Shown piece by piece: positions 7,007 through 61,992 of a stretch of DNA of 64,000 nt. The stretch covers positions 1,240,001 through 1,304,000 of the forward strand of contig CM102285.1 in assembly GCA_046563655.1 (NCBI GenBank), read 5' to 3'. Position 1 is the stretch's first letter. Each line of letters opens with the position of its first letter. Source of the DNA: Yuukianura sp. NJ FZ-2021. Its lineage: Eukaryota. The notes below the pieces were generated by a model, which made no database searches, was not told the DNA's origin, and saw only the letters and a list, made by a program, of their open reading frames with translations. A program made the translations under genes and the position numbers.

Positions 7007-7013
7007 GTAAGCC

Positions 7014-19808: not shown

Positions 19809-19815
19809 GTAAGCC

Positions 19816-20375: not shown

Positions 20376-21371
20376 CCGAGCCCTTTTCCACTACTACTGC
20401 TGTGCTGTGCAATCGGTTCAAGTGCTCCCCCCTTCTTCGCTTTGTCTTGTTAAAACTATGTTGAAAATCATGCAATTTCCCGCTCTCACGAACATTGAAA
20501 TCGTGTTTGGGGAATGAACAATGACGGAGGAAAAAAGAGTGGGAAAAAGTTTGAACAACGAAGTTTAAAAAATTTATTCAAAAAGCCCCTCTGTACTTCC
20601 TCTTTTTAAAAAGTAGAAAGGGCTCGGACCCAACTTTTGTTCAACTGTTCAAAAACAGAACAGAAAAATTAAAAATGTGTGTTGGCAAATGTCCAACTAA
20701 CAAAAAACATGAGGCATACCAAATGTGGACATGTATGGTTTCATGCCAGACTGTTCAAACGAACAATGAGATACACATGCCGTAGCATTAGCATTATCTA
20801 TACCTAAGTTGGGCATGGGCGGGGAATTTGAATTTTTTTGGAAATTCATAAGAAGCGGGAAGTGCAAAACTTGCATACTATAGGTTTAGAATTAACTGCG
20901 ATTTTTTAAAGAATGTCTGTCCAACTAGTTAAAGTTGAACTGAACTGCATACTATCTTTTCAATTTTGAAAGATTTTCAAAAATTTTAATTTTGAAAAAT
21001 TTGAAGACTTTTACTAAAGTTTAGTATTTACTACACTGACTGTCAATGGATTGATTTTCTCGGTGAGAATTGCGATTGTAGCAAATTGAATGTCGAATTA
21101 CTTTCTTGCTTTGCTCTAACCTGTTTGCTGTTTTCGAAATTGAAGGTTTGGTTTGTTTTTGAAAAAGTGGAAATTTTTGAAAAGTGAAATGAGTGACTGT
21201 GTCACTCGGATTGTAAAATGCGGAATTCAGTTTGGAATGTTAAAGTTAAAAATGAGTTGGTGGTCCATGGTCTTCTTGGGAAAGTATAAACTCAATGGCG
21301 ATGGAGTTTTGCAAAATGTTTTTTTTTTTTTTGAAAAGCGGGTAATTTGAGTTTTGTTTTTGTCTTTGTAG

Positions 21372-21595
21372 TAATTCGAGTGAATGGGCAGAGGAGGTTT
21401 AGTTGTAGAAGATGTAAGAAGAGTTACGCTCAAAACGTATCACTCACGCGACATATTCGTTACCAATGTGGTGTTGAAATTGGAGAATTTGAATGTCGAT
21501 ACTGTGGCAGAAGAAGTAAATTACTTCAGAATTTGAGGTCACATGAAATGACATGCAGAAAGAAATTGGCCAAGTTGAAAAAACTAAAAAATTAA
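21372..21595 (+). CDS. Alternative terminal exon, CCHC+C2HC fingers
   Basis: CRRC..HIRYQC..CRYC..HEMTC. Selector tataaactcaatggcga at 21285-21301. Confidence 0.85.
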
Positions 21596-21912
21596 GAAAA
21601 AAAATTTCTACTAAAAAAATTGTAAATTTTAGTTTGAATTTTAGTCTTAAATTTTACTTGTTTTTTGTACACTTTGTTCAAAGTTGGTCCTAATGTTTTT
21701 GAATTAAGAAATTAAAAATTCGTAGATTAAAATTTTTTAGTGTTAATTGGAAAATGTGGGATTCAGATTGCAAAATGTGGCTTTTGAAGACGTGTGAGTA
21801 AAGTCAAGGTCGCTCTGATTGATTGGCATGTTTGCTTGGAGGCAAAAAGTTTCAAAATTTCTTTTGAGATTCAAAATTTTCGTGTTCAGGGTTTTGGTTT
21901 TTGAGTTATGAC

Positions 21913-22419
21913 CAGGGCTGCAAAAAATATTTACTAAAAACCCCCAAAATATTTATTGAAATATTTACTGAAAAACGGCACTATATTTAAGAACATATTT
22001 ACTAACCAAGTCAATATTTACAAAATTTTACCTTGAAATCACATAAATTCAGTTGGCATTTGTTAATTTGTCACTGATGCGTTCAACGCAACCGGGATTT
22101 TGAGTATTGCTAACCTGAACTATATTTTCTTTCTTGGGTTTAGAAGTCAACAGGATATCGAATTTGATTAAGGATGGCTTTGCTGTGTCTTTATCGGTTG
22201 AAAAAGCAAAAATTGTTAACCGAGGATGACAAATGTCATCAATATACCGAAATTTTGGTCCGAAAAACACTGAAACGGCTAAAAATTTACAAAAAATATT
22301 GATTATTTTTCAAAAACAGTCAGAAATTTAGAAAAATATTTATATTTTTTAAAATGGCAGAATATTTTTTTTAAATATAAAAATATTTAATATTTAAGAA
22401 AATATTTTTTGCAGCCCTG
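21913..22419. mobile_element. hAT-like MITE
   Basis: TIR CAGGGCTGCAAAAAATAT; 8-bp TSD gttatgac (21905-21912, 22420-22427). Confidence 0.9.
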
Positions 22420-22452
22420 GTTATGACGGAAGGTTTTAATTTTTTGCCGTAG

Positions 22453-22724: not shown

Positions 22725-23018
22725 AAGTTACCTTAGGAATTTTGCAATTTACTGAAGTATAGGTTGGATTTTTTGGTTTTGAGTAATTGTGAGATTTATG
22801 TATAATTAAACTGTAATTTTGGTGAAAACAAACATTAGTTTTGAAATAGTTTTTTAATGTTTTGAAAACCGGATATTTTTAGTTGAGTTTGTTTGATATT
22901 GAGAGAACTTCACAAGGTCGCTATTCCGTTGAATTTGAGTCAGAAATTTCTCTTTTTATGTCTGTTTGTTTAGTTTTTTTTTGTTAACTATTTTTGAATC
23001 GAAATTTTGAAATTTTAG

Positions 23019-23263: not shown

Positions 23264-23726
23264 ATTTGTTTCATACGATTTTGCTATAAATGTTAAGTAT
23301 AAGTGGTACAATTTTTGCTAATTTCAGGAATTTCCGACGCTGATTAATTGCATTTAAAAGGCATATATGTATGCTAAGGAACTTAATTAATATATACTGT
23401 AGCATAATAAATTTATTGAATAACCTAACCTAAGTTTATATTGAAGAGAGACTTTTTTCTCGAAATTTGAATTATAAACTGTCTTTCGGACTTCAAGTTT
23501 TGGATTCTTGGTTGAAGAAATTTCGCAAATTGGGTCGAGTAGGTTTAAATTGAAGTACAATTTTGTGAGTAGTAAATTTCTATGTTGGCGGTGAATTTTG
23601 AGTTTGAAGTGTGTTTGGGCTGTTTGGCGTTGGTGTGTTTGGTGGCAATTTCAAGAGCCGCTATGGCATATTGTTGGACTGTGCAAATATTTTTTTGCAA
23701 TGTTGCAAATGATTGATTGTTGTAAG

Positions 23727-23947
23727 GGTTTTTGGGACGTGGGTTGTGCTGTCCGAGATGTGGAAAACGGTATCATGCCCAGCAGAAGTCAGCATTTGAC
23801 AAGCACATCATGTACGACTGTGCAAAAATTCCGCCAAAATTTAAATGTGGACTTTGCGATTATGTGGCACGAAGAACGACTTACTTTGAAGCTCATTTCA
23901 AACGGTATCATCCGCAGAACGAAGTTTCGTATTTCAAATACTACTAA
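23727..23947 (+). CDS. Alternative terminal exon, YDC-type CCHC+C2H2
   Basis: CPRC..HIMYDC..CGLC..HFKRYH. Selector cgctatggcatat at ~23659. Confidence 0.85.
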
Positions 23948-24223
23948 TTGGTGGATTTGGAATTTTTATTACGTAGTTTAAGAAAAAATGTAGGTGCTAA
24001 CGATATGTGCAGAACCGTCTAAATCGATGGATTTTGAATTTTTTAGATGATTTTAAAACCGATAGAAAATATTTCATTTTAGCACGTCAATTACGCAAAT
24101 TTTCCGTTTTCCAAAAGCGGCAATTTTTTTTAAAGTACAAAACCATTTCTCAACACGCCATGGTGTATAATAAACCGAAATTTGGAAAATTTCTTAGTGA
24201 AACGTAGGTTTTTTTTTTCTTAG

Positions 24224-24411
24224 GAAAGTTGAAATGTACGCGTTGTGGAAAACGGTACTCGGCTGAGCAGAAGTCAGCTTTTGCGAATCACGTAACTTAC
24301 GATTGTCCGTTCGTTGAGCCAAAGTACAAATGCATCAAGTGCAAATACTTGTCCAGAAGGAAGAAACCGCTCATGCAGCATTTGGCAAAGTTCCATAAGG
24401 ACATTTTTTGA
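24224..24411 (+). CDS. Alternative terminal exon, YDC-type
   Basis: CTRC..HVTYDC..CIKC..HLAKFH. Selector ttctcaacacgccatggtgtata at ~24147. Confidence 0.85.
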
Positions 24412-24591
24412 AAATTTTGAAATTTGTAATTTTTGGAAATTTATATCTATGAGATTTGTTTTGGAACCTGTAGAAGGAGCCATGGCGTATACATGCTTTA
24501 TAGATTAGATTTTGCTTCTTTATGGAAATGTTAGGCTAATCCTGGTTTCTGATTGGTAAGTTAGGTTAATTCTCGTTTTTGATTGGCTTAG

Positions 24592-24785
24592 GCTGCGTAA
24601 CATGTGGCCTATGTGGAAAACGGTATTTGGCAAGAGAGAAGCGGGCAATTCGAAACCATTTTCTGTATGACTGTCGACAAATTGAACCGAAATTTAAGTG
24701 TGAGTTTTGCCCGTATTCGGCTAGGAGAAAGAAAGGACTGATGGTACATCATGCTCGATTTCATTCCAACAGTGTTCCAATATGA
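24592..24785 (+). CDS. Alternative terminal exon, YDC-type
   Basis: CGLC..HFLYDC..CEFC..HHARFH. Selector gccatggcgtata at 24479. Confidence 0.85.
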
Positions 24786-25077
24786 AACGTTTGAATTTGT
24801 GTAGTTTTTATATGGAATTTTGGCTTTAAAGATTACGTTAAATGAATGTGTTTTTAACATTTTAAACTATGCAAAAATAAATTTTACGAAAAGTAATTGC
24901 GATTTTGTCTGATCCTGGAACCAAAGGTGGTGCAATTCTATTTTTGTATTGGTTCTAAATGTGGTTGAATTTTTTAAATTTTTACAATGGTGAAGCCAAG
25001 GGTTTTTGAGGGATTTTTGAAAATTTGATTTTAACATTTGGTGTTCTTTTTTTCTCCATTTTTATTTTCTCGAATAG

Positions 25078-25265
25078 CCTCGGGCTATGCATGGCTTACA
25101 TGGCATGCACCACCGCCTTTTCGTCGTGTTTCGTTTGGTCAAGTTGTTGGCAAGAATTTTAAATGTAAGATATGTGGTCATGAGCAACCGGACTGACGTA
25201 GGCGCCGAGCACATGAAGATAGACATCGAATGGCGTTGCTGAAGAAAAAATTGGTGTCTAGGTAA
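25078..25265 (+). pseudogene. Decayed cassette
   Basis: FKCKICGHEQPD* has an in-frame TGA before HEDRH; the first finger is lost. Confidence 0.6.
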
Positions 25266-25490
25266 TTTCTGTGTAGGAAATGTCCATAGTTATATTTGGT
25301 GCACGTAGAACTGATAAAAGTTCACAGACACACAAGTGTAAGCGACTCCTTCAGTTAAATTAAATTTAGCGGTAAAATATTTTGTGTTGTAGTGTACTTT
25401 GCATTTAAAAAAAAATCAAAAAAAAAAAAAATCTTATTTCGGTAACTTTTGATGTGCGCCATGCCATGGAATTTTCATTTTATTTTAAAG

Positions 25491-25714
25491 CTTCTTGTTT
25501 TGTTTGTGCAATAGACGAAGCAGGATTACGCTGTAGATGGTCAAGGCGCGGAAATTTGTATCTAACTGATTCAAGTACTCGTCGAAGTCACGATTCTGCT
25601 GAGGTTTATCCGAAGCTTAAATGTAACATTTGTGGTCGTTGGGGATTTGCTGGTCGTCAACTCAGAAGACACTATTATTATCGCCATCCTGATGAATATA
25701 GAAGGAAATATTAG
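25491..25714 (+). CDS. Alternative terminal exon, degenerate first finger plus C2H2
   Basis: CNIC..HYYYRH. Selector gccatgg at ~25463. Acceptor uncertain (25491 or 25515). Confidence 0.65.
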
Positions 25715-26012
25715 TGTTGAGGTAATCTTTGTGTAGGGAATGAGATATTTTAAAAGTTTTGTACCAAATTTGAGATTTCTGAGCTAGAACAATATTGTAC
25801 ACACTCACTTACGACTTTCTTTGTGTTTGTACTGGTTAAGTTGAATAAAAGTTTGGAAAAGATTGTTCTAAAGTTTCCCCGACAGATATTGTTTATGTTG
25901 CAACTTTTCAAGTGAGCCATGGTGTACGAAGTACAAAGTGTATCATTGGGATATTTGATTTCGAGTTTATATTGGTTTTAATTGCCGGTTTTTTTTCCTT
26001 TTTTTTTATTAG

Positions 26013-26218
26013 ACTTGTGCTGTACATTATGTGGAAAGTGTTATCCACTACGTAAGAAAGATTCGTATAACCACCATGTTCTTTACGATTGTCGAAAACT
26101 TGATCCGAGGTTCAAGTGCGACGTATGTGGTCATGTGACACGAAGAGGTTGTGCACTCAAAAAGCACTACCTAAGTCATCATCCGATAGAGTATAGAAAA
26201 AAATATTTTTATGTCTAG
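26013..26218 (+). CDS. Alternative terminal exon, YDC-type
   Basis: CTLC..HVLYDC..CDVC..HYLSHH. Selector tcaagtgagccatggtgta at ~25908. Confidence 0.85.
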
Positions 26219-27017
26219 GAAATCGTCTTTTAACTTTTGTACTTACGCCTACAGCCTAGAAGGATATTTGTATATTGCTGGCCGAACATCTTGTTGTAAT
26301 GTTGAAAAACTTGCAATAAATTTTAGACTTTTTAACAACCCGGAGAAAATTTTAACTTTTTCGTCCGGTTGAGTTTAAAGACAAATATTTCTGGTGAGGT
26401 AATCTGTTGAGGCAATTGCTGTTGAGGGAATCCTGTTGTTAAATGTTTGTCCACGTCTTGTACAAAATGGTTGTGTACTTAAACTCTGGGTTATTTTATG
26501 TGAGGCAAAAGAAATTTTTTAAACAATTCGGTTTTTTTTTCGACACTTCATAAAGAAATTTTTTTAAACTTTTTTTGTGGTACTTTTCAGTGTATTTGGG
26601 TGATTTTAAATCGGGTTTTGGAAGTTGTGACGATGGTTTCTGTTATCATGTAACGCACGAGTCAAATGCACGGTTTAGGTTAGGTTGACCGTGTGAAAAA
26701 ACAACTGTTTGAGTGCAAATTTTGTGCGTATAAGTCAACCTGTTACTTTAATCTTCAACAACATCATAAGACGCTACATGAGGGGTTTCCATTTGAGTAA
26801 AATAAGGTAGTTTTTGAAAAAATTTGGTTAGGTTTTCAAAACCTAATGTTATGGTGTTGTTTTTTTCGTTTAGAGTCTTTCTGTGTGCAATTTTTGTTGA
26901 TCTCAACAATAACATTGTTGAGGCGCCATGGCTTGTAAGCTCTGTGAAAAGCTGAAGTTTTTGGTCGAAATAAATTTGGTGTTTAATTCTTTTTTCTGTA
27001 TTTTGAAACATTTGTAG

Positions 27018-27226
27018 AGGAACTTCTAAATGGTAAATACGTCTGTAGAAGATGTGGCAAACGGTTTGCTCATCACCAAGGAGCTACGTATTTCTCACAT
27101 ACGAATTATGACTGTTCGAAAATTGAACCAAAATTTGAGTGCGAATTCTGTGGCTTCAAGACAAGACGCCAATATAATCTCAAATCACATGTCGCGAGAC
27201 TTCATGGAGGATTTCCGATTCAGTAA
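27018..27226 (+). CDS. Alternative terminal exon, YDC-type
   Basis: CRRC..HTNYDC..CEFC..HVARLH. Selector gaggcgccatggcttgtaagctc at ~26920. Confidence 0.85.
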
Positions 27227-27410
27227 CATAGGAGCAGATTTTAAATTTTTGAAGTTTTTCTACTAATTTTTGTTTGTAAAGTTCGGACCTTGTTTTGAAA
27301 AAAAATTCTCTTCTCTTAATTTTGTAAGGCGCCATGGCTAGTAAGCTCTTTCTCGTTTTAAATAACGTTTCTGGTGTAATTTTTTGTCGTTTTTTTTTAA
27401 ACGTTTGTAG

Positions 27411-27607
27411 TGAAAAATTTGTATTGCCCATACTGTCCTAGGGCGTTTCCGCGCCACCGAAGGTCAGCGTGGAGGAAACACCGAAATTTTGACTGTTTAA
27501 ATATTCCGCCAAGGTATCCATGTAAATTTTGCACCTACAAATCCAGACGTCTTTACAATCTGCAAACACATCACGCGAGACGCCATCCGGGCTTAGACTT
27601 TGAATGA
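27411..27607 (+). CDS. Alternative terminal exon, YDC-type
   Basis: CPYC..HRNFDC..CKFC..HHARRH. Selector aaggcgccatggc at ~27326. Confidence 0.85.
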
Positions 27608-27741
27608 ATTAAATTGGCGCCAACAAATTTTTAATGTTTTTTATAAGTTCCGTTGATTAAGTTATTGAGGAAGCCATGGCGTATAAATAATAAATTTTGA
27701 AAGTTTTTCGGTTTTTAAAAATTTGGAATTTTGTGTTTCAG

Positions 27742-27977
27742 TTGTCAATAAGTGTAACCTTTGTGGGAAATGTTTCTATGCATATCAGAGGTCAGCTATC
27801 AAGAGTCACAGGTTGTATGATTGTTTGAAAATGCAGCCACAATTTAAATGTCGTTATTGCAACTATAGCGCGAGACGGAAAACTGGACTTCAAAAACATC
27901 ATGTTCGACGGCATCCGACTTTCAAATTTGTTTTTGAACAACTTCAAAAACCTAAGTGTGATATCGAAGAAATTTAA
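27742..27977 (+). CDS. Alternative terminal exon, YDC-type
   Basis: CNLC..HRLYDC..CRYC..HHVRRH. Selector gccatggcgtataaa at 27673-27687. Confidence 0.85.
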
Positions 27978-28145
27978 TTTGTAACAATTTTTATGAATTC
28001 GTTCCGAATTTTGCCCTATTTCAGTATTTTTTTAAAACTTGTAAACTGCTGAAGGAAGCCGTGGTGTATAAAATTTTCATAAAAGAAAGTGAAATTTGTA
28101 GTTTCAAGTTTGGAGAACTTGGTTTTCTTTTGTTGTGTGTTTCAG

Positions 28146-28396
28146 CTTTCTTCAAATCTTGTCATCTCTGTGGCAAAGGTTTTCTGCGTCGTCAGAGTTC
28201 GACGTATTCTAATCATATGTTGTACGACTGTTTAAGTATTGCACCGCAGTATAAATGTCCATACTGTGACTTTGCTGCAAGACGTAACTGTGGACTCACG
28301 AGGCATCATGTTAGGGTACACCCTGATTTGCAGTTTGTTTACAGAAAACGTAGAAATGCTGTTCCTACTTTAGAAGATTTTCCTCCTGACTACTAA
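28146..28396 (+). CDS. Alternative terminal exon, YDC-type
   Basis: CHLC..HMLYDC..CPYC..HHVRVH. Selector gccgtggtgtataaa at ~28058. Confidence 0.85.
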
Positions 28397-28689
28397 TTTA
28401 TTTTCTTGTTTTTTCAAAATTTTGATTCCAAATTGTTCCTTTTGGTTTGGATTTTTATATGTTTTAAAATTTCTTAAGGCGCCATGGTTTGAAATTCTTA
28501 ACGTTTGAAAGTAAAGCGGTCGAACTTTTTAGAGTGGAAATTTAACCTGCGTGTAATATATTTCTTTTAAATCAATGCATACATGTGCCATGTGCCATGC
28601 CAACAAATTGGAAAAAGGGCGCCATGGTATATACTAATACTAAGGTGTTGGGAGAATCTAATGTTAATGTAAAGTGTTGGTGTTTTTAG

Positions 28690-28898
28690 CCAGTAGGGAG
28701 AGGATAAGGTGCTCGCGATGTGGAAAAGTGTATTTTCGGCATCAGAAAAGCGCCATGGCTTTGCACAATTGGTACGACTGCCCGGAATTGGCGCCAAGAT
28801 ACAAGTGTAAAATTTGTGGTACTCTGGCTAGGCGAATGGAGCGATTGAGAAAACATCATGAAAAATATCATCCAAACGTCCCATTTGAATCACGATGA
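28690..28898 (+). CDS. Alternative terminal exon, YDC-type
   Basis: CSRC..HNWYDC..CKIC..HHEKYH. Selectors cgccatggtatata at ~28620 and ttaaggcgccatggt at ~28474. Confidence 0.85.
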
Positions 28899-29031
28899 TA
28901 CTTTAAAAGTTGTCAAGTGATGATAGATTTGATAAAAATTCACGAATTTGAGAAATTTAGAAATTTTTTTCCGGTGTAGTTTTCAATAAAGTTTTCTTCT
29001 TTTTCGGGATATATGAATTTAAAACTTGAGT

Positions 29032-29070
29032 GCCATGGCATATAAATCAAAGCGGCAAAAAGAATCTCGG
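29032..29070 (+). promoter_or_regulatory. Longest selector seen (pairs with the 5' half of the docking site)
   Basis: gccatggcatataaatcaaagcggcaaaaagaatctcgg vs docking reverse complement gccatggcatataaactcaaaggcaaaagaagttcgg. Confidence 0.85.
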
Positions 29071-29148
29071 ATCTCGTTTTTGGGAAATTTTCCTCAAGTC
29101 AAAAAATTTGGTTTTGAAAACACGGGTGTGTCTTGTGCCTGTTTTTAG

Positions 29149-29360
29149 TATTCGTGTATTCATGCCCGCGTTGTGGCAAGTCATATCATCGGCGTCAAAG
29201 ACCAGCTTTTGAAAATCATGTTCGGTATGATTGTTTGAAAATTCCGCCAAAATTTCAGTGTGGTGAATGCGACTTTGTCGTCAGAAGGAATCACGCTCTC
29301 AAAGCCCATTATCTTAAGTTTCATCCAACCAAAAGTATTCCGCCTTTTGCATTCACTTGA
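29149..29360 (+). CDS. Alternative terminal exon, YDC-type
   Basis: CPRC..HVRYDC..CGEC..HYLKFH. Confidence 0.85.
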
Positions 29361-29769
29361 TTGAGTTAGCCTAATAGAGTTATCTTAACATCTAACATGG
29401 TTCAGGTTATGATTAAAGTTTAATTTTTAGCATGGTGAGCTTAATAAACGATGGCAGTTTTTAAATCGACGTGAAACCACGAAAATGGGCTTTCGGATGT
29501 TGGAATTTCCAATTCCACAACAACATCGTTTTTTTTTTCGCGCTCAGGGCGCATCTTTGCCAGCTTTTTTCTGCTAATAGACATATTGAACAATTGAACA
29601 GAGTTTTGTTAATTTTTGGGATTTTTAAAATTGTGTTTGTGTTTTTGGGAAATAAAGTTATTTGGCTGTTATAGATTTTGTTGTGAAGGGAGAAGTGGAA
29701 GCCATGGCATATGAATTTTCTGTTTAAGAAATTGTAAATTTCGTAATGTTTGTGTCCGTTTGGGTGCAG

Positions 29770-29987
29770 GAGTGCAGTGCATCTATTGTGGAAAGAAGTA
29801 TCGAGCACGGACGGCAGCGTACCGCAGTAAAGCGCTTGAGAATCATATGACCTACGACTGTAAACTCATCCCGCCAAGATTTAAATGCGGACTATGTGGA
29901 TTCGTTGCTAGGAGAACAACTAGGTTTCATTATCATTTTCAAAAGTCTCATCCGCTGATGGTAGTTTCCTACAAAAAGTTGTATTGA
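29770..29987 (+). CDS. Alternative terminal exon, YDC-type
   Basis: CIYC..HMTYDC..CGLC..HFQKSH. Selector gccatggcatat at 29701-29712. Confidence 0.85.
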
Positions 29988-30208
29988 GCTGGTCACAAAA
30001 TTTCGAAAGTTTACGGTACCGAGTACCGGTTTTCAGTTCGGTGAATTCAGATTATTAGTATGGTGCTTGTTGGATCTTTCGTTTGTAAGGTGTCATGGCA
30101 TATGTTTTCTTTGGATTGAGAAGCATGCTAAATTTTGTAGTAAGGTAAAAAAAAACGTAGAATTTTAGAGTTTTTTGAATTTGTTTTTCGGATTTTTGAA
30201 ATGTGCAG

Positions 30209-30397
30209 AAGTTGATAGGTGTGACCGTTGTGGGAAGACGTATCGCGGTAAAACGAGATCTCGCTACATGCCGTTCTACAATCACGTGAACTACGATTGT
30301 CCCATGATTCCCGCCAAGTATAAGTGTAAACTATGCCCATATTCTGTACGTACGTAGGCACTACATGCTAAAAGTACACTACACTCGATATCATTAA
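30209..30397 (+). pseudogene. YDC-type cassette frameshifted by a 4-bp duplication
   Basis: gtacgtacgtagg gives SVRT*; removing one tacg restores SVRRHYMLKVHYTRYH*. Confidence 0.7.
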
Positions 30398-30739
30398 GTA
30401 CTACGTTCACCACCTTACCGCCACTTAACATGAAGATTACCACCTAACTTGAGGATTACGTTAGATCTAACCTGTAACGATAAACGTAAACTTCAGACGC
30501 ATGTCTTGGTTTAAGTTTGTACTGAAATGGATTTTTCAACCTTGTTTTTTTTTCTGGAACATCGTAGGTTTTAAATCTAGCTCTGATTTTGAACTTTAAT
30601 ACCGTTTTCAAAATGGGTTGATGCGTATGAAACGTACTCTGCAAAATTTTAATTTTGAGATCAATGACCGCGATTACTGTTTTTCTTGAAATCTGTAAAT
30701 TCGGTTTGCTAGTGGTAGAATTTTCCTGAAATCTGAGAG

Positions 30740-50300: not shown

Positions 50301-53300
50301 GAAAACGTTTTCGTTGTTCAATTCCAAACTGTACGAAGTTATATTCCTCTAGAGGAGCTTTGGTACGACATATGCGGTACGTTTTCTAAAAAAAAAATTC
50401 TAAAGAGAGTCTATGGATACAAACATAATTTTGTTTTTGTTTTTTGAAAAAAAAAGGTTTGATTTAAGAGTTACACAAAATTTTGAAAACTTTTGTGCTT
50501 ATTAGTTACGAATGCAACAAGGATCCACGGTTCAACTGTAACCTTTGCGGACATAAGACCAAACGGATGTCGGATTTGCGACGACATACGCAGATTTGTA
50601 AAGGTTATCCGTCTCGTCAATCCCTGGCGTTCAGACGATAAGTTAGTTTAAGTCAAGGTCAATGATAGGGTCAAGGTCATCTGGTTAAGGTCAAAGTAGT
50701 TTTAGTAAGGTCAAGGTCAAAAGTTCTGTTGGCTGGGTGATTATTAGCTTAAAGTGATCGTTTTGTTTTGAATTTTGAAAGTTGGAGTTATAAATAATAA
50801 ATATCGCTTTATTCATTCCATCTTAAACCTCTGTTTTTTTTAACTAAATTGTTAAAATTTTAATGTTTTTGAACTAACATGAGCAGGACCCGGAAACGTT
50901 CCTTGATTTTTTTAAATGTTCACTTCTGTGTTTTTCATTGTTGTTTAAACCATTTTATGGACTTTTACTGTATTTGTGGTGAACCTCTTAAAAAAACTTG
51001 GCGGAAATTCAAAGTTTAAAAAAATTTGGCCGGCCATTTTTGTCTTTAGGAAAACGATTTCGTTGTCCCAATCCCGATTGTCGTCGGAGTTATTCACGTA
51101 AGGGAAGTTTGGCTCGTCATTTGCGGTACGTTTTCAAAAAAAAAAAAGTATTGAAAACTTCATACATGATTTCTAAAATTTCTCTTTAGTTTGAAAAGTA
51201 ACTTTTTGAAATTCTTTGTGCTTACGCTTATTAGTCATGAATGCAACAAAGATCCACAGTTGAAGTGCAATCTTTGCGGACATATAACCCTGCGGAAGGC
51301 GGATTTGCAACGACATGCGCAGACTTGCAAAGGTGTTCCGTCACGCCAATCTCTTGCGAGACGACGACGGCTTGGACTAGATTAAGTTAAGGGCATGTTG
51401 AATACCTTTGGTCAGGTCAAGGTCAGTTTCGTAAGGTTGTTTAGATGAGGTAGTGTTTGTTAAGGAGTTCATTTGGATTAGTGTACAGTAATTTTTTTGT
51501 GTTCTTCGACGCCACCAATTTAAGACTATTTTATAATTGGAACAATTTTGCAACATTTCGTATGAAAAGCGTTGGTTTTTTAAATTGTAGAACTGTTTTG
51601 CGAACCACTCAAGGTTGCTTAGCTTTTTGTTTTGAAATGTTAACGATTTTGTAAAATCTGAACAGGAAAAAAAATGGAGAGATTGTACATATGCGTCTGT
51701 GGTCGTTTCTATGCAGTCAAAGCAAGTTTGACAAGACATATGAGGTGTGTTGAGTTAACAACAAAAACAATCCTCTTTTTTCGGTTTTTGAATTTTTTGA
51801 AAGAATAATAAAATCTGTGAAACCTTTTTTCAGATTCGAGTGTAACAAAGAACCGCAATTTCAGTGTCGTCGAGGTCACAAGTTTGCACACAAAAGCAGT
51901 TTGCGTAGACATTTACACATGTCACCCGAATGTATTTGAATTTGAACAAAGTCAAGTTTCGTAAAAGCTTCAAATTTTAAAATTTTTCGAAACATTAAAT
52001 TGGAAAGATTTTTAGCTTTGTTCTTTTCTCTGAAAGATTTACAAGTTTTGACGTGGTGAATTTCTCAGTCGTGGCAGAAGCAATTTTTTTTCTTTTATGT
52101 TTTTGAAATTTTGAAATTTAGGGAAATACTTTCCGTGTCCCAACCTCCTTTGTCCAAAAGTCTACACTCACAGAAGCAGTCTTTGGCGTCACGTCAAGTA
52201 AATACATATTTGCCCATACTAAATTTTTGTCTGCGACCTTACAGTAAACTAAACTTTGTTTTGTTTAGATTCGAATGTGGAAAACCTCCACAATTCCGTT
52301 GCCGCCTGGGTCACGTTTTCACTCGCAAGTCAAATTTGATGAAACACTTACAAACTTCGTTTGACTGCAATTAATGCAATTCCCAATCCCAATGCCGGGA
52401 TTTTTCAAGTTTTTCAAAACAAAATTTTTTTTCAAAATTCGGATTTAGTGTTTACCCAATGAGCAACTTTTGTCGTATTGTAACAATTCATCTGCCACCT
52501 TCAAGAATATAGTTGTAAATTAGAATATTTTTTTGTGTGTTTCATTTTTTTTGAACAAGGAGTAAAGTTGTTTTATTGTGTTGAATAATATTTCAATGGT
52601 GAACCACTCAAACTCGCCCAACTCATAGACAAAAAATTTGGTTTCTAAACCAAAGACTATAAAGACTATTTTTGGTTTTAAAACGTTTTGAATTTTTAAT
52701 TTTAGAAAAACGACCAAGGCATAAATGTCCGAAATGCCCAAGTTCTTATGCTACCAGAAAGTCCTGGAGACGTCATGTGAAGTACGCGATGTAAACTAAC
52801 CCAAAAAATTTACCGTAAAACTTCTACCAAGTCCCCGAGCTATATGTAAAGTCTCAGCCTTTAACATTCATAAGTGGCCAGCGTCTATGTCTGTTTCGAA
52901 ACTCGGGATTTGTTAAAAACTGGGAATTATTAGAAGTTTTACGGTATACTTTTTATTTGTTGCTGTTTAGTTTTTCGTAATATTTTTTGATTTGTAGACT
53001 CGAGTGTGGTCGGGAGGGAACATTTCAATGTGAATATTGTGATTTGAAATTCAAACGAAAGTACAGACTTCAGCGGCATCAAAGGCAGAAACATTGTACG
53101 CTTCATGCACCAGTTCATGTTGTTGTTCCAGAAAAGAAAGCAGTTTAAAGTTGTTTCAAAAGAACCTCGAAAAGACAACGAATTTGAAAAAAATTTCGTA
53201 ACCGAAACATAATTTCAATTCTACTATTTTGTACTTGAGGTTCTGTTTTCAGTCTTTTTCTGAAATTATAGTTTTATGTTTTGGATTTCTGTTTAATGTG

Positions 53301-53733
53301 GTAAACCTTTTGAACTGTGTCATACGTCAACTGGAAATGTGTTGACTATTTTGCTGTTGATGTGATTGACGTTCATGTAATGTATTGATGCTGCTAAGTT
53401 TCAATAAATGTTGACGTTCTGTATTATAGTTGTAGTCCGTCGGAAGGTTTTCACTTGTCCTACTCCGAACTGCAATCGTAAATACACCAACGAACAGAAA
53501 CTGATTCGACATTTTAGGTAAACATGATTTCTCAAAATTTCAAACAAATTTCAAAATTTCAGAATTCAAATCTACGGAGCCTTTTGAAATTGTGTAGATA
53601 CGTTTGCGGCAAGCCGAAAATATTCAGTTGTGAATGTGGCTACAAAGCCTTCCAAATGTCAGATTTGAAGAAACACCAACAACGAGTCAATAGTTGCCGT
53701 GCATTTTCAATGCCTTCTCGTTGGAAGAAATGA
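50301..53733 (+). CDS. Six split cassettes: 50301-50641, 51050-51385, 51666-51939, 52122-52374, 52706-53148, 53430-53733
   Basis: lola-like C..C..RHx(R/K)|xEC(N/G)KxP.F.C..H. Selectors gtggtgaacctct at 50228 and 50976; others at ~51600, 52051, ~52597 and ~53298. Confidence 0.82.
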
Positions 53734-54003
53734 ACAAGATTGCTAATTGAGTTGCTTCTTGAAAAAATTAACAGGACTCAAATTTCTGTTTTCAAAATAA
53801 ATTTTTCTGAAGTTTTTTTTTCGTTTTGTAACTCGCGATGATCAGTTTTTTGATGATTGGAGAAAAATTTGGAAAAGTTGAATTGACCTTTGAAGTGTAA
53901 TTAAAAAAGTAAACTGTTTGTGGTGACCTCTCATGCTTTTTTGAAAAGTTTTTCTACCTCTAATGAGTTTTGGAACTATGTTGAGCTATGTAATTTTGCA
54001 TAG

Positions 54004-54368
54004 GGACTGTGAGGCCTGTGCGCATGCGCAGTAGCTATGCAGAATCTCCAGAGTACTTGCCTACTGTTTTAGATGGAAGATTCTTTACTCCTTTGCCGTC
54101 AGTTCCATTTGTAGGAAATCTCACCGATAGACCAGCAATCAAACGCAGAGCAATCTGTCTCTCCTGTGGAAAGATGATCTGTGGGGTCATGACCTCCAAT
54201 TTTATTACTCATTTGAAGGTAAGGGCACCACACTTAATTAACTCAACTCGTTTAAGAACTGATTATGTTGATGAAGTAACTGTTGAACTTTTTTAGCGAG
54301 TGCACCAGGCAGCTTACATCGAATACAAGGCTCACGCTCAGGCACAAAGAAGGTCTCTTCCAGTTTAA
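54004..54368 (+). CDS. Split cassette, BED-finger-like (54004-54218 + 54297-54368)
   Basis: RFF..AICLSCGKMI..TSNFITHLK|RVH with a phase-0 intron. Selector gtggtgacctctca at ~53920. Confidence 0.8.
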
Positions 54369-55044
54369 ATATTGTACTGAAATGTTCCTAAAGGTCAAAG
54401 GTCAACTAAGATTCCACTTTGGTTATGCTGCGGCGCAATAAGATAGTTTCATTTAGAATTTTTCATAGTTGCAACCGACGGCTTACTAATTTGAATTACG
54501 TAAACAGCAAACACGTAGGCAAACAACAACAAATACTAAAATCGGCATGTTTACTTAAGAACAAAAAGTATTCAAAGCTACATATCTCGACGTTATGGAA
54601 AACCGTGTGCAAGTAGTGTTTATGTATTTGGTGTGTACGTAATTGTAGAACTTGGTGGATCATGTTTGTGGATAATAAAAAATTGGTTTTTGGGGAAAAA
54701 AACTATAAAATTCAAATTACGTGGATCCGATTCGAAATCGAATGTTAGTTTTTGCAACAACTTGCGATCTTTTAAATTTTCAACCGTTTCAAATTTGAAG
54801 TTTCACAACATATTTTGTCAAAAATTGGAATTTTTGAAAAAGTTTTATCAACTAGCTAAGAAATTCAGTATGGATGATGGAGATAGTCTCAAATTATTTT
54901 GGAATCTTGCCTACTACATTTGTTCTTACCGTTTTCCTTTTCCATTGTGACTTTCTACCGATACCAAGCAGCACAGCCAGTAAATTGTTAATATTTGTAG
55001 TGATAATTAATACATTATGCTATTATAAATCTTTCTAACCATAG

Positions 55045-55325
55045 GATCAAAGCATCTGGAGTTTGTCAAAAGTTCTTGGGGCGGGAACTTGTTGATTTGG
55101 AAAGGCTTTATGTTTTCGAGAATTAAAGCGATTGGCGGTAGTCAGTACTGGAGATGCACTCGCTACAGAGATCGCCACTGCACTGCCAAGTGCATCACAC
55201 GTTTTGGCAAATTTAAGTCTGAATCTGGAGGGCACAATCATGAAGTAGAGCCAGAAGAAATTGAAAAGCGACGGAAGTTGAGTTTTTGGAGAGACAGTGT
55301 CCGAAATGAGGAAATTTTACCATAA
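55045..55325 (+). CDS. Alternative terminal exon, FLYWCH (mod(mdg4)-type)
   Basis: FVKSSWGGNLLIWKGFMF..YWRC..CTAKCIT..HNH. Confidence 0.85.
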
Positions 55326-55740
55326 ACTGACTTGAAAGCATGCTGTATGCTGTTTCTTTATCAATTTAACTACATGTAATTACACTAAATTTTAAGGGCA
55401 GTTTTATGAAGTGTAAGAATAGTTCATATGCAGTAATAGCATTTTTTGTATCTCAGTTTAACAAATTTTGGGATTAACAAATTTTGTGGACATGTGTGAG
55501 AAATTTCTCTTAAAATAAAATTTGGTAGCGTTGAAATTTTTGAGATCGTTTTTCTCTTCAATTTTTTTTCTGAAAGACTTTCTTATGGTGGAGTTTTTTT
55601 CTGAAACTGCGGTAGGAATGTTTGGTTTATGAGAAATGGCGCTGATTTAAAAAGTTTTTTGATTTGGTAATCTCTCAAGGTGTGAAATTTTGTTAGTTTT
55701 TCTACTTAAAATGTTTCCATATGTTTTGTTTTTGATTAAG

Positions 55741-57375
55741 AACTGAATTTGCGATACAATTGCACAACTTGTTGGCGAAGCTACTTGCACCACACAAGCC
55801 TCAATCGTCATCGAAAGTAAATCAAAACATGTTTCAATTTTAAGAAGTAATTCAAAAAATTTCAAATTCTGGAAATTTCAAAAATTGCCGTTTCGTTCTA
55901 GATATGAATGTGGAAAGGAGCCGAAATTTAGTTGTGAGCATTGTGGTAAAAGATTTCACCAGAAAAGTAACCTAGCACAGCATCTCGTCAACTGCAATAC
56001 CAAGAAAGCTAAACACCGAATAAACCAACACTAAAGAAGTTCAAATTTTTCATTTTGTTTGTAAAAAGTTTCAAAATGTTTTCTTTTTGAATTTTTTTTA
56101 AACATAGGTCTTTGAGTTTATCAATTTTGCTGAGAGCTGCTAATTTCTTTCACTCTTTTTTCGTTTTTGAATAAAATATGTTCAATACTGTGAAGTTGCC
56201 GGTGGTAACTAGGCTGAATTGAAAAAAAAAATCACTTCAGTTTTTAAAATTTTCGTTGTTCAAAAACCTGAAAAAAATTTTCCATTTTGAAATTGAACGT
56301 GGAGAATCTCTCGAGGTTGCATTGGAAAGAAATTGTTTTTCTCAACAGTTTTTTTTAGAAATTCATTTGTTTAATTTAGTGGATTACGACGACGGCCGTC
56401 ATAAATGTCCAAATTGTTGGAGAACTTATAAGCACAGGAAACATCTCCAGCGTCACGTAAAGTATAGCATCCATATTAAATTCAAAAAAAAAAATTAAAT
56501 TTCTTAAAAATTTAGGGATTTTTGACTTTTGTATAATAGATATGATTGTGGAAAAGAACCTCAATTCATGTGCGTAGAATGTCATCATAGATTTCGTCGA
56601 AACGACCAACTCGAAAAACATCTTCTTAAAATGCACGGTTACATATTGTAAACCGACTTTACGTCCACTTTTTTAAGTGAAAATATTTTGAAAAAAAAAT
56701 TTGCTCCAAAAATGTTCCGGAGCTTTCTGAACCGGTTATACAAAATGTTAATTTGAAGCGGTGAACCTTTGAATAAAATTCGAAACAGTTTTCTGTTTAA
56801 GTGTTTTTCTTTTGTAAAAGTTTTACATTCCGGAAATTTCTTAGGTAATTTCATATCTAAATTTCCCCCATGTATCAAGAAGTTTTTAAAATTTCGAAAG
56901 TGGAGCCACATTTTCATGTTTTTTTTGTGGATTACGTTGGCTCAAAGCTGTTGATGTATTTCAAATCATAAATTCACTTTAAGTTTCAAAAATTTTTCGA
57001 AAAGTATTTCATTTTGAATTGGAACGTGAAGAATCTCTCAAGGTTACAATGGAAAGAAACTATTTTGCTGTGGAGTGTTTCTTTAAAATTTATTTAATTT
57101 AGTGGATTACGACGGTCGTTATAAATGTCCAAAGTGTTGGCGAAGTTATCAGCACAAGAGAAACCTTCATCGTCACTTAAAGTATAACATCCATATCAAA
57201 TTCAAAAAATTTCTTCTTTGAAATTTCTTTAAAATTTGTGAAATGTTGACTTTTGTATTATAGGGATGAATGTGGAAAGGAACCTCAATTTGTGTGTATC
57301 GAATGTCATCATAGATTTCGTCAAAACAACCAACTCAGAAAACATATTATAAAAATGCACGGTTACTTGTTGTGA
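55741..57375 (+). CDS. Three lola-like split cassettes: 55741-56034, 56380-56651, 57103-57375
   Basis: CxxCWRxYxH..L.RH.K|x(E/D)CGKEP.F.C..C..H. Selectors at ~55666, 56296-56320 and ~57023. A gutted cassette remnant lies at ~56758-56950. Confidence 0.85.
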
Positions 57376-58292
57376 ATCAACTTAAAGTAAGAAACGTCCA
57401 ACTTTTTTATGTATATAAATTTTTGAAGAAAAAAAATTGCTCTAAAATGTTTCGGAGCCTTCTGAACCGATTATACAAAATTTTAATTTGAAGTGTGGTG
57501 AACCTGTCAATAAAATTTAGAACTGTATTCTATTAGTGTTTTTCTTTGTAAAAAGTTTTACATTACGGAAATTTATTAGGTAAAAGGTACGCATGCCCAA
57601 CATGCTCCAGAACGTATGGTACTAAGGGCGCTCACAGCAGACATATCAAGTATGTACGCATGTAAATTTCCGTCATGTATTCAGAATTCTTTAAAATTTC
57701 AAAATTTGGAACATATTTTGATGTTTCTTTCTTGAATTAGATATGAATGTCAGCAGGAACCAAAATTTGTTTGTGAAACTTGCGGTTACAGAGCCAAGCG
57801 AAGTGATTTGCTGCTCAAACATTTCAGATACTTGTTGTGAATCAACTTAAAGAAGAAACGTCCAACTTTTTTATGTATATAAATTTTTGGGAAAAAAAAT
57901 TGCTCTAAAATGTTTCAGAGCCTTTTGGACCACCGATACAAAATTTTAATTTAGAGTGTGGTGAACCTGTCAATAAAATTTAGAACTGTATTCTATTAGT
58001 GTTTTTCTTTGTAAAAAAGTTTTACATTACGGAAATTTATTAGGTAAAAGGTACGCATGCCCAACATGCTCCAGAACGTATGGTACTAAGGGCGCTCACA
58101 GCAGACATATCAAGTATGTACGCATGTAAATTTCCGTCATGTATTCAGAATTTTTTAAAATTTCAAAATTTGGAACATATTTTGATGTTTCTTTCTTGAA
58201 TTAGATATGAATGTCAGCAGGAACCAAAATTTGTTTGTGAAACTTGCGGTTACAGAGCCAAGCGAAGTGATTTGCTGCTCAAACATTTCAGA
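57364..58292 (+). repeat. Very recent ~465-bp tandem duplication (57364-57828 / 57829-58292)
   Basis: Near-identical units, each containing a selector and a cassette. Confidence 0.92.
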
Positions 58293-59533
58293 AATTCTAA
58301 AAAAGGATGCGGACTTACTTTCTAGTGGCGAAAAATCAAACTATCAACCTAACTATTCAACTAAACTATCGTAAATGCTTCGTATAGATATTTACCATGG
58401 CTGTTCAAAATTCTAATTCTGTTGGAGACTTGTTTTTAAAAAATTTTTAAATTTGGACGTAATCTTGACAATGTCTGAGGAAAACTTTGAACTTCCAATA
58501 AATTTTAAGTAAAAATTCATTTAGTTGTGTGAACCTTTCAATCTCCTCTTTGATTGATATGATCAGAGCTTAAACGTTGGTTGTTATATAAATATTTTTG
58601 AATCGTTAACTGTTAAATTGGTTGTTCAAATTTGTTTAGATGGGAGATACCCATGTGCAACATGTGGAAGATCTTATGGCGCTTTGCAAAATTTGAGGAG
58701 ACATATTCAGTAAATGATAGACACGAGTTTTCATTTTTTTTTCAAAATTTTTTCATTCAATTTTTTTCAATTAATTTTTACTTTACTTTGTTTTTGTTGC
58801 ATTAGGTATGAATGTCAAGTGGAACCGAAATTTGTTTGTAAAACTTGCGGTGGCAGATACAAGCGAAACGATGCGCTCCTCAGGCATTTTAGAGTTTCCA
58901 AACATCGGTGTTGACATGGCCAAGCTACCACAATTTCACAGATAATTTTCTGAATCGATTACTTTAACGTTTAAGATTTCATGCGATTACTTTGTTGGTG
59001 GTATCCAATAAAATTGAACTCTATTGCCTGTTAAACTGGATTGTAAGGTTGCTAGGTTAGGCGGGAGTCTGAACCGATTAGCAATTTTGCACTCACTTCA
59101 GTAATAGATTGCGTTCTTTTTAAAGAATTTTGCAACGGGGTTAGTCTTACTTGGGTGACTTGTTATCTTTAACCCCGATTGGCAATGCACAAACTTTTCC
59201 ACTTTTTGCCACACCGTTTTTTCTATTTTTGGTACTTTGGAATTATTTTAGGCAGGCAATACCAATGCCCCACATGCCCACGCGTTTATGCTCATGTGGA
59301 TTCGTGGAGAAGACATACCAAGTAATTACTTGTAATTTCAAGTTGCTTTTTCAAAATTTTTAAATCTCAAACAGGGTTATTAATTTTTTTTCCATAGGCA
59401 TGAGTGCCAGAAGGAACCCAAATTTGTGTGTCAATTTTGCGGCTCCAAATTCAAACGACGGGATAGTCTTCTTAAACACCGGAGATTACCAAATAGGTGT
59501 AGCCGCAAAGTCGATCCGCTGCAGTCTCTGTAA
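57580..59533 (+). CDS. Four lola-like split cassettes: 57580-57840, 58044-58325, 58640-58914, 59252-59533
   Basis: Y.C(P/A)TC.R.Y..RH..|(Y/H)ECQ.EPKFVC..C. Selectors gtggtgaacctgtca at ~57495 and ~57958, and gtgaacctttcaa at ~58529. Confidence 0.82.
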
Positions 59534-59860
59534 TTTAATTACAATTGAATAGCCTAACATTAGGTCAAACTAATCTTATCCTAACAATTGGTCCACAAAT
59601 TAATAAAAAGATTCAATTCGAATAACAACAATCGAATCGAAATAATCAAATCTACATAAATACAAGTAAAAAATACTAACTAAAATAAGGCAGCCTCAAT
59701 TTATGCTTATTTTTCCTTCGTCGTTTACGAAATTCACTTCATTCTGATTTGGTGAACCTCTCAAAACGTCTAACGTAATTCATGGCTCAAAAAATTGTTG
59801 TTGCATATTTGTTTTGTAGAATCAAATTCGGGTTGGTGTTTTTTTTTTCAACTTTCTTAG

Positions 59861-61992
59861 CAGGAAACATATACATGCAACTGGATGGGAAAACGTCTAC
59901 GATTCTACCCATCTTTGACGGTAGATATTTCACTCCTGTCGCACCGATTCGGTCTAACAAGCCAAATAGTACTGGATCCAAGATGTGGAAACGCAGAGGG
60001 CGTTGTCAGTCTTGTGGGAAAATTATTAAAGGGGTCATGACCTCCAACTTCTACATGCACTTGAAGGTAATGATCTCCTTACCACGCGGATTTTCTTAAA
60101 GCGAAACTACTTTAAGAATTTTTTTAAAAAATCGGCTTTTGACAGAGAATACATCCGGAGGCATATGAAATGTGCAACAGGGAGCGATGGAGAAGTCGGG
60201 GAATAGAGCTGGATTGAAAAAAAGGCGCAACAAATCTTCAACTTTGCCAAATGTTTTGTAGATTTTAAAAAAATTGAATCCTTTATTGAATCGATTTACT
60301 CTTGTTTACTATTGGTATTGTACTGAATCGACTCATTTTGTTCCTGTAATACCCAATACAGATTTTGAAGTAACTCGAAGTTTGTGGATTTGTACTATCG
60401 TTTGTACTTTCAAATTATAATGAACGTTTGAAATTGATGGTTGTGTCTTGTAATCTCATCTTGATTTTGTAAAAAGCAATTCAAAAATTATTGATTACGT
60501 TGGTGTAAATAAAAACTTTAGTGGAAATAGAAGAAAAATTAACCCGTTTTAGTTGTAATTTTCTATTTACACCTTCGCATACTAAAATCGGAATGATTTC
60601 GGAATTTTCATTTCAAATTTTTATGTTTTTGATGGTTTTATGGTGAACCTCTCATGGCTGATCGTTTTTGGAATTCTTAGAATTTTGGATTTCCTTGAAT
60701 TTTTTTGTTTTCGAATTTTTAGTTAGCGTACTTGGACCTAGAATTTTTAATTGGAAGTATTTCCAAGTGGTCGCAAGAACTGATGTTCATGTGCGTGGAT
60801 TTCGAGAGTTCAAGTACCAAGCAGTTTGCAGTGCTTGTGGAACTACAATCACTGCATACATGACTTCTAATTTTCTTCGTCACTTGAAGGTTTTTGTCTA
60901 CAAAAAAAAATCGCGTCATTTTTGTTTAAAAAAGTATTTGGAGAAGTTTTTAAACTGAAGTTGTGGTTGAAATTTTTAGAAAATGCATCCGGAGCTGTAC
61001 TTGGAGTACGAGTCTGAGAACAAAGGAATGAATTAACGTTGGACTTCTACTACGTTGGAAACGATTTTTTTTATGTTTCTCTATACATATTCAAAATCTT
61101 TTAAATAAAGTGGATCCAAAACAAAGCTTTTCAAATTTAAACGTACCTTGCGTTGCTGCGTCCCCCGCCTGCATGAAATTGTGAACCGAAAAGCACCACC
61201 TCTGCATGAAATCCTTGGTTGAACCGAGAATGTCGTACCGCTGCCGGATTTTTTTGGATTGCTTGTTTACATTTTTTTATGTCTTTTTTTTTGCAATAAT
61301 AGTACAATGTGGACTTGGGACACAGAAAGGACGAAATCGAATTTTGCAGGATCGGTTTTACAAAATCATTTCAGCGGTTCGTCAAACCACGTCAAGGAAT
61401 AATCGGGTCAAAGTTCAAGCAGAGTGTGTCAAATGTGGCTACCTGGTTTCATCCAATGTCACATCAAACTTCATCAGACACTACAAGGTAAGTTACATCA
61501 TGGCAGTGTTAGGTTTACATCATAATACGACTTACGGCGTTAGAGAATTAGATGCTGCAAATTAGAACTTACCATGATAATTGTTACGATAAGTATTTAA
61601 AACAGCGCCCTAAAAATGTTTGATTTCTTCAAGCTATAGTTTATCTATTTTCAGAATGTCATTTTTCCGCTGTTTTTTTTTTTCGTTTTCACTCCAAATC
61701 TTAGGAAAAACTTAAGCTTTTGGAAAGCACGTTCTACATAATGTCTGTACAGAATTTCAAAAACTTCTAATTTCTAGGTTAACAGTACATAACTCAACGA
61801 TTTTTTTTTCAAAGTTGAAATGTCATTACGAAAAAAAAAAGCAGGCAAAGCTGTAAAATTTGACAAAGTTAAATTAAGTTTTGTTGAAAATACTTTTTAT
61901 TTGCTTTGTTACAGAATCATCATCCGGACATTTATCAAGATTTTAGCAAAACCTCAACTAATCGCAGTAGGAAAAGATCCCACCAGCGATGA
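59861..61992 (+). CDS. Three BED-finger-like split cassettes: 59861-60217, 60723-61036, 61303-61992
   Basis: (R/K)(Y/F)(F/Y)..CxxCG..TSNFxxH(L/Y)K|xxHP. Selectors tggtgaacctctcaa at 59750-59764 and tggtgaacctctca at 60641-60654. Confidence 0.8.

Follow-up and report, generated by a model that had tools for sequence, protein, structure and literature searches.

Pairing register follows exon family in a putative docking-selector array of a BTB gene of the lola/mod(mdg4) kind

How might one constant splice donor be matched to one of dozens of alternative terminal exons, and are the RNA elements that could do the matching tuned to the distance of an exon or to its ancestry? These questions are raised by a 64,000-nucleotide stretch of the genome of Yuukianura sp. 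NJ FZ-2021 (assembly GCA_046563655.1, contig CM102285.1, positions 1,240,001 to 1,304,000 of the forward strand; hereafter the window, in whose coordinates positions are given). Classed by its BTB domain and its array of 3' cassettes, the gene on the + strand of this window is a BTB gene of the lola/mod(mdg4) kind. Its constant module is present twice in tandem, at about 5.6-7.0 kb (copy 1) and 18.4-19.8 kb (copy 2), and downstream of copy 2 reading frames and finger motifs delineate about 68 alternative 3' zinc-finger cassettes at 21.3-61.5 kb. Here we describe a conserved block beside the constant donor, the candidate docking element, and short elements complementary to it before most cassettes, the candidate selectors. 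A sequence-only reading of the locus had held that cassettes near to and far from the donor use different halves of the docking site. We find that the pairing register does shift along the array, in a step from one exon family to the other and not gradually with distance. The explanation that we favour, and consider fairly probable, is a docking-selector system of splice choice in which each cassette lineage inherited its register.

A conserved candidate docking element beside the constant donor

Pfam places a BTB domain, which we take to be of the arthropod TTK group, on two constant exons (E 2e-6 and 3e-8). In the Atlas, the gene lies nearest to clusters of arthropod BTB proteins, 'modifier of mdg4-like' among them. 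The exons of the two copies are 92-100% identical (96-100% for the last constant exon) and their other introns 40-65%. In copy 2, the donor G/GTAAGC at 19809 closes the last constant exon in phase 1, and the docking element occupies 9-78 nt after this donor; the corresponding donor of copy 1 is at about 7007. The docking block is 100% identical in the two copies (Table 1); beyond the block, identity falls to about 50%.

A scan of metagenome contigs for a 22-nt core (19845-19866) returned eight loci, which amount to seven distinct related sequences since two of them, L006 and L007, are near-identical. The last constant exon of these relatives is clearly diverged (L006 about 70% identical, by eye and not computed), and their intron spacer and downstream intron are unrelated to those of the window, yet 19842-19874 is still invariant, including 3 nt before and 8 nt after the core that the scan did not require. 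The 5' arm of the element differs in L003, L004, L005, L006 and L008. Thus, from the identity of the copies and the invariance in relatives, the intron adjoining the constant exon contains one conserved element, as expected of a docking site.

Candidate selectors precede most cassettes

Complementarity to 19811-19890 was sought by pairing-aware local alignment (GC 3, AU 2, GU 1, mismatch -5, gap -8). At a score of at least 30, 59 sites were found on the + strand and 2 on the - strand, with a mean of 3.6 in ten block shuffles; at a score of at least 34, the corresponding numbers were 40, 0 and 0.4. When a selector was called for each cassette as a score of at least 26 within 300 nt upstream, 54 of the 68 cassettes had one, followed in 51 of these by an in-phase AG acceptor at a median of 65 nt (10th-90th percentile 48-100). 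Within each family, alignment of the paralogous upstream introns leaves the selector as the sole conserved island. When G-U pairs were given no credit in the alignment, transitions that preserve a wobble pair occurred at 70 of 645 sites and disruptive ones at 24 of 581 (Fisher p=8e-6), and the wobble-preserving share, 70/94, exceeded the 58% expected under a base-composition null (p=8e-4), both p-values being optimistic because paralogues are not independent.

Two other searches were set aside. A sliding RNAduplex scan (75 nt against 60-nt windows) was too permissive, giving long interrupted structures with mean energies of -21.2 (+ strand) and -18.7 (- strand), and a lenient alignment (mismatch -3, gap -5) was replaced as its matches were over-extended (63 + strand and 6 - strand sites at a score of at least 40).

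One selector, CTTAAGTTCGCCATGGCAT, stands about 400-550 nt after the docking site, at 7476-7494 and 20353-20371 in the window, and is kept in four relatives (L004 881-899, L005 839-857, L006 10453-10468 and L008 1200-1215); across both window copies and these four relatives, its changes are all G-U-compatible. A motif search downstream of the copy 2 instance (20353-20371) found no recognisable finger exon.

Register differs between exon families

We compared the register between two families, the YDC-type single-exon cassettes and the split cassettes, in which an intron interrupts finger 1 after RH.R (a GT[AG] donor directly follows RH.[RQK] in 36 of 38). That the proximal cassettes are YDC single exons, as the sequence-only reading had it, is true of 16 at 23.7-31.9 kb and untrue of the cassettes at 21404, 22527 and 23123. 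Across the 51 + strand matches scoring at least 30 at 20.5-61.6 kb, taken without the cassette table, position correlates with the midpoint of the paired docking interval (Spearman 0.68; 0.71 with the cassette table), and the predicted positional trend is therefore present. Before 32 kb, the 5' arm (<=19841) is reached by 17 of 19 matches and the 3' arm (>=19868) by 2 of 19; from 32 kb on, the respective counts are 1 and 23 of 32, with 8 matches reaching neither arm. By these counts each arm is used by its own exon set, with the exceptions listed below.

The median docking midpoint is 19848.5 for YDC selectors (n=15, main window 19835-19866) and 19862 for split selectors (n=32, main window 19845-19880), a difference whose Mann-Whitney p of 6e-7 is inflated because paralogues are not independent. 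Pairing of YDC selectors peaks at 19845-19852 (86-93% paired) and reaches 5' to 19835, whereas that of split selectors peaks at 19857-19866 (75-96%) and reaches 3' to about 19875. Accordingly, 40-80% of the 15 YDC duplexes pair at 19835-19844, against 0-6% of the 32 split ones; 19867-19875 is paired in 37-68% of split duplexes, YDC coverage being 6-20% at 19867-19869 and 0% from 19870. The sub-sites are not separate: YDC coverage is 33-66% at 19855-19866 and split coverage 28-62% at 19845-19852, so that a zone of about 22 nt (19845-19866) is common to both families. Among the 480 possible YDC x split pairs, the median number of docking nucleotides in common is 9, and 71 pairs have none. The two families hence use different, overlapping parts of the docking element, as had been noticed; 'different halves' proves too strong a description, and the overlap, which had been put at 10 nt, is about twice as wide.

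The two motifs on which that description was built are - strand sequences, found at 19835-19852 and 19851-19873 and a second time at 7033-7050 and 7049-7071, so the + strand RNA carries their complement, 26 nt after the donor. Few selectors fit these motifs when they are read literally, the agreement being partial: three + strand sites fit the 18-mer with up to three mismatches, and none fits the 23-mer.

The register difference resembles a step more than a slope. A single step accounts for 41% of the variance and a straight line for 35%, and with the step removed there is no residual position trend (rho 0.16, p=0.28). In a joint model, family contributes a step of +9.8 nt (p=0.0045) and position a slope of 0.25 nt/kb (p=0.08, the same by within-family permutation). 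Within families, the Spearman correlation with position is 0.18 (p=0.51) for YDC and 0.31 (p=0.086) for split cassettes. Neighbouring split cassettes are closer in register than in random order (5.6 versus 7.1 nt, p=0.014), and this similarity of adjacent cassettes is what tandem copying would produce.

Several selectors depart from the register of their surroundings. A distal FLYWCH selector (49761-49772) is central, the selector of the last YDC cassette (31616-31642) is shifted 3', one proximal selector spans both registers and two distal split selectors use the 5' arm (Table 1). These exceptions fit lineage, not distance; the last YDC cassette, for instance, is of a short-spacer subtype. 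Selectors of the FLYWCH and BED-like cassettes are mostly in the 3' register or central.

Energies calculated with RNAduplex are not known to include the duplex initiation penalty, and we used them for comparison only. Over 54 selectors, duplex energy is unrelated to distance (Spearman -0.003, p=0.98), and it does not differ between YDC and split selectors (medians -32.2 and -30.6, p=0.86). As energy is flat with both distance and family, it lends no support to the proposal that the two arms serve to balance near and far cassettes.

Docking sites and candidate selectors in related loci

Downstream of the docking site in L006, selectors again favour the + strand (15 against 2 on the - strand at a score of at least 28). 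In L002, L004 and L006 an orthologue of the first two-finger cassette can be recognised, in each case preceded by a 5'-register selector. Changes in the docking site are mirrored in the selector of the same locus's first cassette: the window has GAGTTT/AAACTC, L004 GAGCTT/GCTC and L006 GAGTTA/TAACTC. A long-spacer YDC cassette of L006 has a 5' register, like its best window match at 24235, and short-spacer YDC cassettes of L006 have a central or 3' register, like their best window match at 31722. The relatives give no support to position as the cause of the shift: the 18 cassettes in the first 10 kb of L006 have interleaved registers (Spearman 0.28, p=0.37, n=12). In L002, a 3'-register selector lies 1.5 kb from the docking site.

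L006 also contains, at 12303, an unsplit version of a 'split' cassette, with fingers 1 and 2 contiguous (..RHLRYECN..) in one exon, an arrangement suggesting that in the split family the intron falls inside finger 1. L006 and L007 are two contigs of one assembly with a near-identical constant exon, docking site and first 10 kb of cassettes; both carry the same selectors, the offsets of which shift by a few bases. The two contigs may be haplotypes, or may stem from a recent duplication such as the window shows.

A model of splice choice and its alternatives

In the model that we favour, one long docking element would pair with one short selector at a time. With the selector about 65 nt upstream of the cassette acceptor, the duplex would bring the donor and that acceptor together, either by looping out the intervening RNA or by holding a separately transcribed cassette RNA. 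Each cassette is a 3'-terminal exon, unlike mutually exclusive internal exons, and a donor can therefore meet only a single acceptor. Selectors of the YDC lineage would be centred on the palindromic GCCATGGC and the 5' arm, and those of the split lineage on CCTTGAGAGGTTCACCAC. Register would be inherited by lineage: each tandem duplication would copy it together with the exon, selection would then maintain it, and the apparent proximal-to-distal shift would arise because the two lineages expanded as separate blocks. The sequence shows the complementarity, its strand specificity, its position and its conservation; we infer that the pairing forms in vivo and directs splicing.

The docking core GCCATGGC, at 19845-19852, is an 8-nt palindrome. 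Pairing could consequently also take place between two transcripts through their docking elements, or between two YDC selectors.

A number of observations weigh against this model or against parts of it. Fourteen of the 68 cassettes have no selector above threshold, and the cassette and acceptor coordinates are our own annotation from reading frames and motifs. Public RNA contigs from three runs, each containing part of the constant exon, were aligned to 18400-38399 as sets X1-X4, of which X4 gave no alignment; they support two constant introns (joints 18622/18710 and 19589/19689) and include zero joints from the donor to a cassette. One 244-nt RNA contig over 35202-35449 (7 other letters, 8 gaps) spans a cassette intron unspliced and is uninformative. 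The invariance of the docking core partly reflects the search, because the 22-nt core was required by it, and the p-values given above disregard the shared ancestry of paralogues. The position term left in the joint model is borderline (p=0.08), and since family and position are almost fully confounded in the window, that regression has low power. Between relatives, exchanging docking sites and first-cassette selectors among four species gave a mean energy of -30.0 for own and -28.0 for cross combinations, a slight advantage, with the own combination best in 2 of 4 columns. Register is not uniformly conserved between L006 and the window (Spearman 0.34, p=0.28 over 12 best-match pairs), in a comparison in which several L006 cassettes are without a real counterpart in the window's cassette table. 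One high-scoring pair is discordant, with the L006 cassette at 13818 centred on 19868 and its window match at 27044 on 19847.5; the L006 selector concerned is weak.

The alternative that fares best, although we hold it to be distinctly less probable than the favoured model, is pairing in trans. Here cassettes would be transcribed from their own promoters, and a selector in the 'outron' would tether each cassette RNA to the constant transcript for trans-splicing, with either constant module as partner. The identical docking blocks of the two modules suit such an arrangement, as do the length of the array (>40 kb) and the fact that each cassette terminates its own reading frame. Trans-splicing is established for Drosophila lola and mod(mdg4), as cited in PMC9258826 and PMC13490949, and RNA pairing promotes trans-splicing of mite sDscam (PMC9258826). 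Against it, complementary pairing was tested in Drosophila mod(mdg4) and found not to drive trans-splicing (PMC13490949). At the present locus nothing points to cassette promoters or chimeric transcripts, the RNA contigs being without cassette joints, and the same anatomy is explained by looping in cis.

It is also conceivable, if rather improbable, that the docking element is bipartite by function, with its arms separately masked or exposed by a protein or a local fold so that the exon families are switched as groups or distance is compensated. The distinct coverage peaks of the two families and the 71 of 480 pairs without a common docking nucleotide are in keeping with this, and an evolving 5' arm beside an invariant centre and 3' arm means that the arms are under different constraints among relatives. 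Against it, the median overlap between the windows is 9 nt, two distal split cassettes rely on the 5' arm, L006 has interleaved registers near the donor and L002 a 3'-register selector near its docking site; nor does duplex energy show a trend with distance or a difference between families.

A masking fold of this sort can be drawn. The exon end and donor (GGTGGTGCTGAAGG..GAAGGTA), at 19786-19812, look selector-like, and RNAalifold on nine sequences pairs them with the docking centre and 3' arm at 19845-19872 (18 pairs, -15.1 kcal/mol), which would free the 5' arm. The same consensus contains 0 compensatory changes among its 18 pairs, and single-sequence folds of the docking region with the exon end are no more stable than shuffles in six sequences (z -1.55 to +1.16), and the same holds for the docking region folded alone (z -1.35). 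These results count against a bipartite function, and the fold may be a donor mask or chance.

Combining the fold with the conservation pattern leads to a speculative and quite unlikely elaboration, in which the docking site is a device of two tiers. The invariant tier, made up of the centre and 3' arm, would be for the old split cassettes; the other, the fast-evolving 5' arm, would change in step with lineage-specific expansions of cassettes, here those of the YDC block and the first cassette. At rest, 19786-19812 folded on 19845-19872 would hide the donor while the 5' arm stayed free as a toehold, and YDC and split selectors would invade by different routes. If true, such a device would allow control at the level of the exon family.

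Finally, we think it very unlikely that the complementarity has no splicing role, with the selectors a duplicated motif or protein site and the docking block kept for another reason, such as an enhancer near the donor: tandem duplication does make common upstream motifs expected, GCCATGGC is a palindrome of a type bound by some proteins and the RNA contigs gave no sign of pairing or cassette use, but the selectors have persisted where their flanks diverged past alignment, are the reverse complement of the docking block and not a copy of it, are nearly confined to the transcribed strand, favour G-U-compatible substitutions, mirror two docking changes of relatives and match different windows of one 70-nt element, unlike a single protein site.

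Organisation of the array and its surroundings

The array mixes C2H2, FLYWCH and BED-like cassettes at one locus, three FLYWCH cassettes and one BED-like cassette being scattered within the split block (Table 1). In Drosophila, C2H2 finger-pair cassettes belong to lola and FLYWCH cassettes to mod(mdg4). All three FLYWCH cassettes tested match FLYWCH in Pfam, two of them passing the curated cut-off, and zf-C2H2 matches the cassette at 21335-21595; the YDC and split exons submitted to Pfam had no match at E<=0.01. No selector above background precedes the last BED-like cassette (61425). Between two cassettes, at 49450-49660, a short peptide unit recurs head-to-tail in several frames and on both strands, which indicates a tandem DNA repeat within the array.

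Copy 1 has a small cassette array of its own at 7.8-12.5 kb. The tandem constant-module stretches, with their identical docking blocks, cover 5400-7100 and 18200-19890. Copy 1 and its array lie between the arms of an inverted repeat (2364-4720 and 13272-15687), about 2.4 kb long and broken into pieces that are 91-96% complementary, which could represent a rearrangement, a mobile element or an assembly artefact. At the other end of the window, a 622-codon open reading frame on the - strand (62131-63999), without a Pfam match at E<=0.01, runs past the window end and is probably a neighbouring gene.

Table 1 Predicted features of the cassette-bearing BTB gene, in window coordinates
Feature	Position	Strand	Remarks
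Last constant exon, copy 2	19689..19808	+	Phase 1 at donor; RNA joint 19589->19689 (GT..AG); reading frame and GGTAAG donor visible
Docking block, copy 2	19811..19886	+	76 nt; identical in both gene copies; contains all selector pairing windows
Docking block, copy 1	7009..7084	+	Identical to copy 2 block
Docking core	19842..19874	+	Invariant in an alignment of both window copies and seven distinct related sequences
5' arm	19835..19844	+	Mainly for YDC-type selectors and the first cassette; variable among relatives
3' arm	19867..19880	+	For split-type, BED and some other distal selectors
Selector of first cassette (two-finger exon 21404)	21284..21311	+	Pairs with 19817-19844, the 5'-most register
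Proximal selector before cassette 23123	22905..22939	+	Spans both registers, 19832-19867
Two sister split cassettes (selectors 34583-34613 and 35096-35116)	34583..35116	+	5' arm and centre
Strong 3'-register selector (example)	52045..52068	+	Pairs with 19857-19880; score 52
Last clear selector, before BED-like cassette 60827	60641..60657	+	From alignment to docking block
Selectors of copy 1 array	7476, 8176, 9294, 9873, 10482, 11028, 12542	+	From alignment to docking block
Three assorted cassettes	21404, 22527, 23123	+	Not of YDC type; from frames and finger motifs
16 YDC-type single-exon two-finger cassettes with selectors	23649..31928	+	From open reading frames and motifs; selector consensus aagg.GCCATGGc.TATaa
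About 42 split cassettes with selectors	33205..59530 (cassettes from 32.9 kb)	+	Selector consensus gTGgTgAACCT..cTcaA.gT..cgc
FLYWCH cassettes	48207-48518, 49829-50128, 55029-55325	+	Pfam E 4e-7, 1.5e-3 and 2.7e-14, respectively
Four BED-like cassettes	53994-54296, 59779-60099, 60662-60958, 61185-61565	+	Two weak zf-BED matches, two without match

Comparison with known systems

In the literature searched, which lacks most subscription journals, we found no paper on docking or selector elements in a lola-like gene, and within that literature both the gene family and the scale, about 68 cassettes, are new for docking-selector systems. In PMC6191721, lola is named in the reference list only. A close parallel in layout is Dscam1 exon 6 of insects and crustaceans, in which, as here, one conserved docking element lies in the intron after a constant exon and dozens of variable exons each have a selector upstream. 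The variable exons of Dscam1 are internal and mutually exclusive, whereas the present cassettes are 3'-terminal; moreover, the docking element here starts 9-26 nt from the donor, the gene encodes a BTB transcription factor, and registers sort by exon family. How near and far exons are balanced in Dscam1 exon 6 is a problem still described as open (PMC12962786, PMC8791459).

In arrangement of the alternative exons, the locus resembles PGRP-LC, CG42235 and Pip of Drosophila, where one shared donor is joined to any of several 3' cassettes in tandem and docking-selector pairing activates the nearby acceptor in 3' variable regions (PMC6191721). Those arrays have 3, 5-7 and 10 cassettes, against about 68 here, and pairings at 3' variable regions were judged 'less common and conserved' in that paper. 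At the present locus, by comparison, the docking core is invariant across clearly diverged relatives.

Chelicerate sDscam resembles our locus in that intron base pairing joins a donor with distant or separate acceptors and that the variable units come in tens of tandem copies, but in sDscam these units are cassettes at the 5' end, each with a promoter of its own, that are spliced to constant 3' exons (PMC9258826).

By gene type, finally, the counterparts are lola and mod(mdg4) of Drosophila, with the same TTK-type BTB constant module and the same long array of alternative 3' exons. What sets the present locus apart from them is the clear complementarity, the presence of C2H2, FLYWCH and BED-like cassettes in one array and the two tandem constant modules. 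Recent work on Drosophila mod(mdg4) argues against a part for RNA complementarity (PMC13490949); the locus described here suggests that, in at least one arthropod lineage, donor and cassette are matched by RNA pairing. It also offers a large natural series of selectors in which the effects of register, strength and distance can be followed. The family-specific registers suggest how such arrays grow: each duplication would copy a selector with its exon, so a docking element could gain arms while the older cassettes are left undisturbed.

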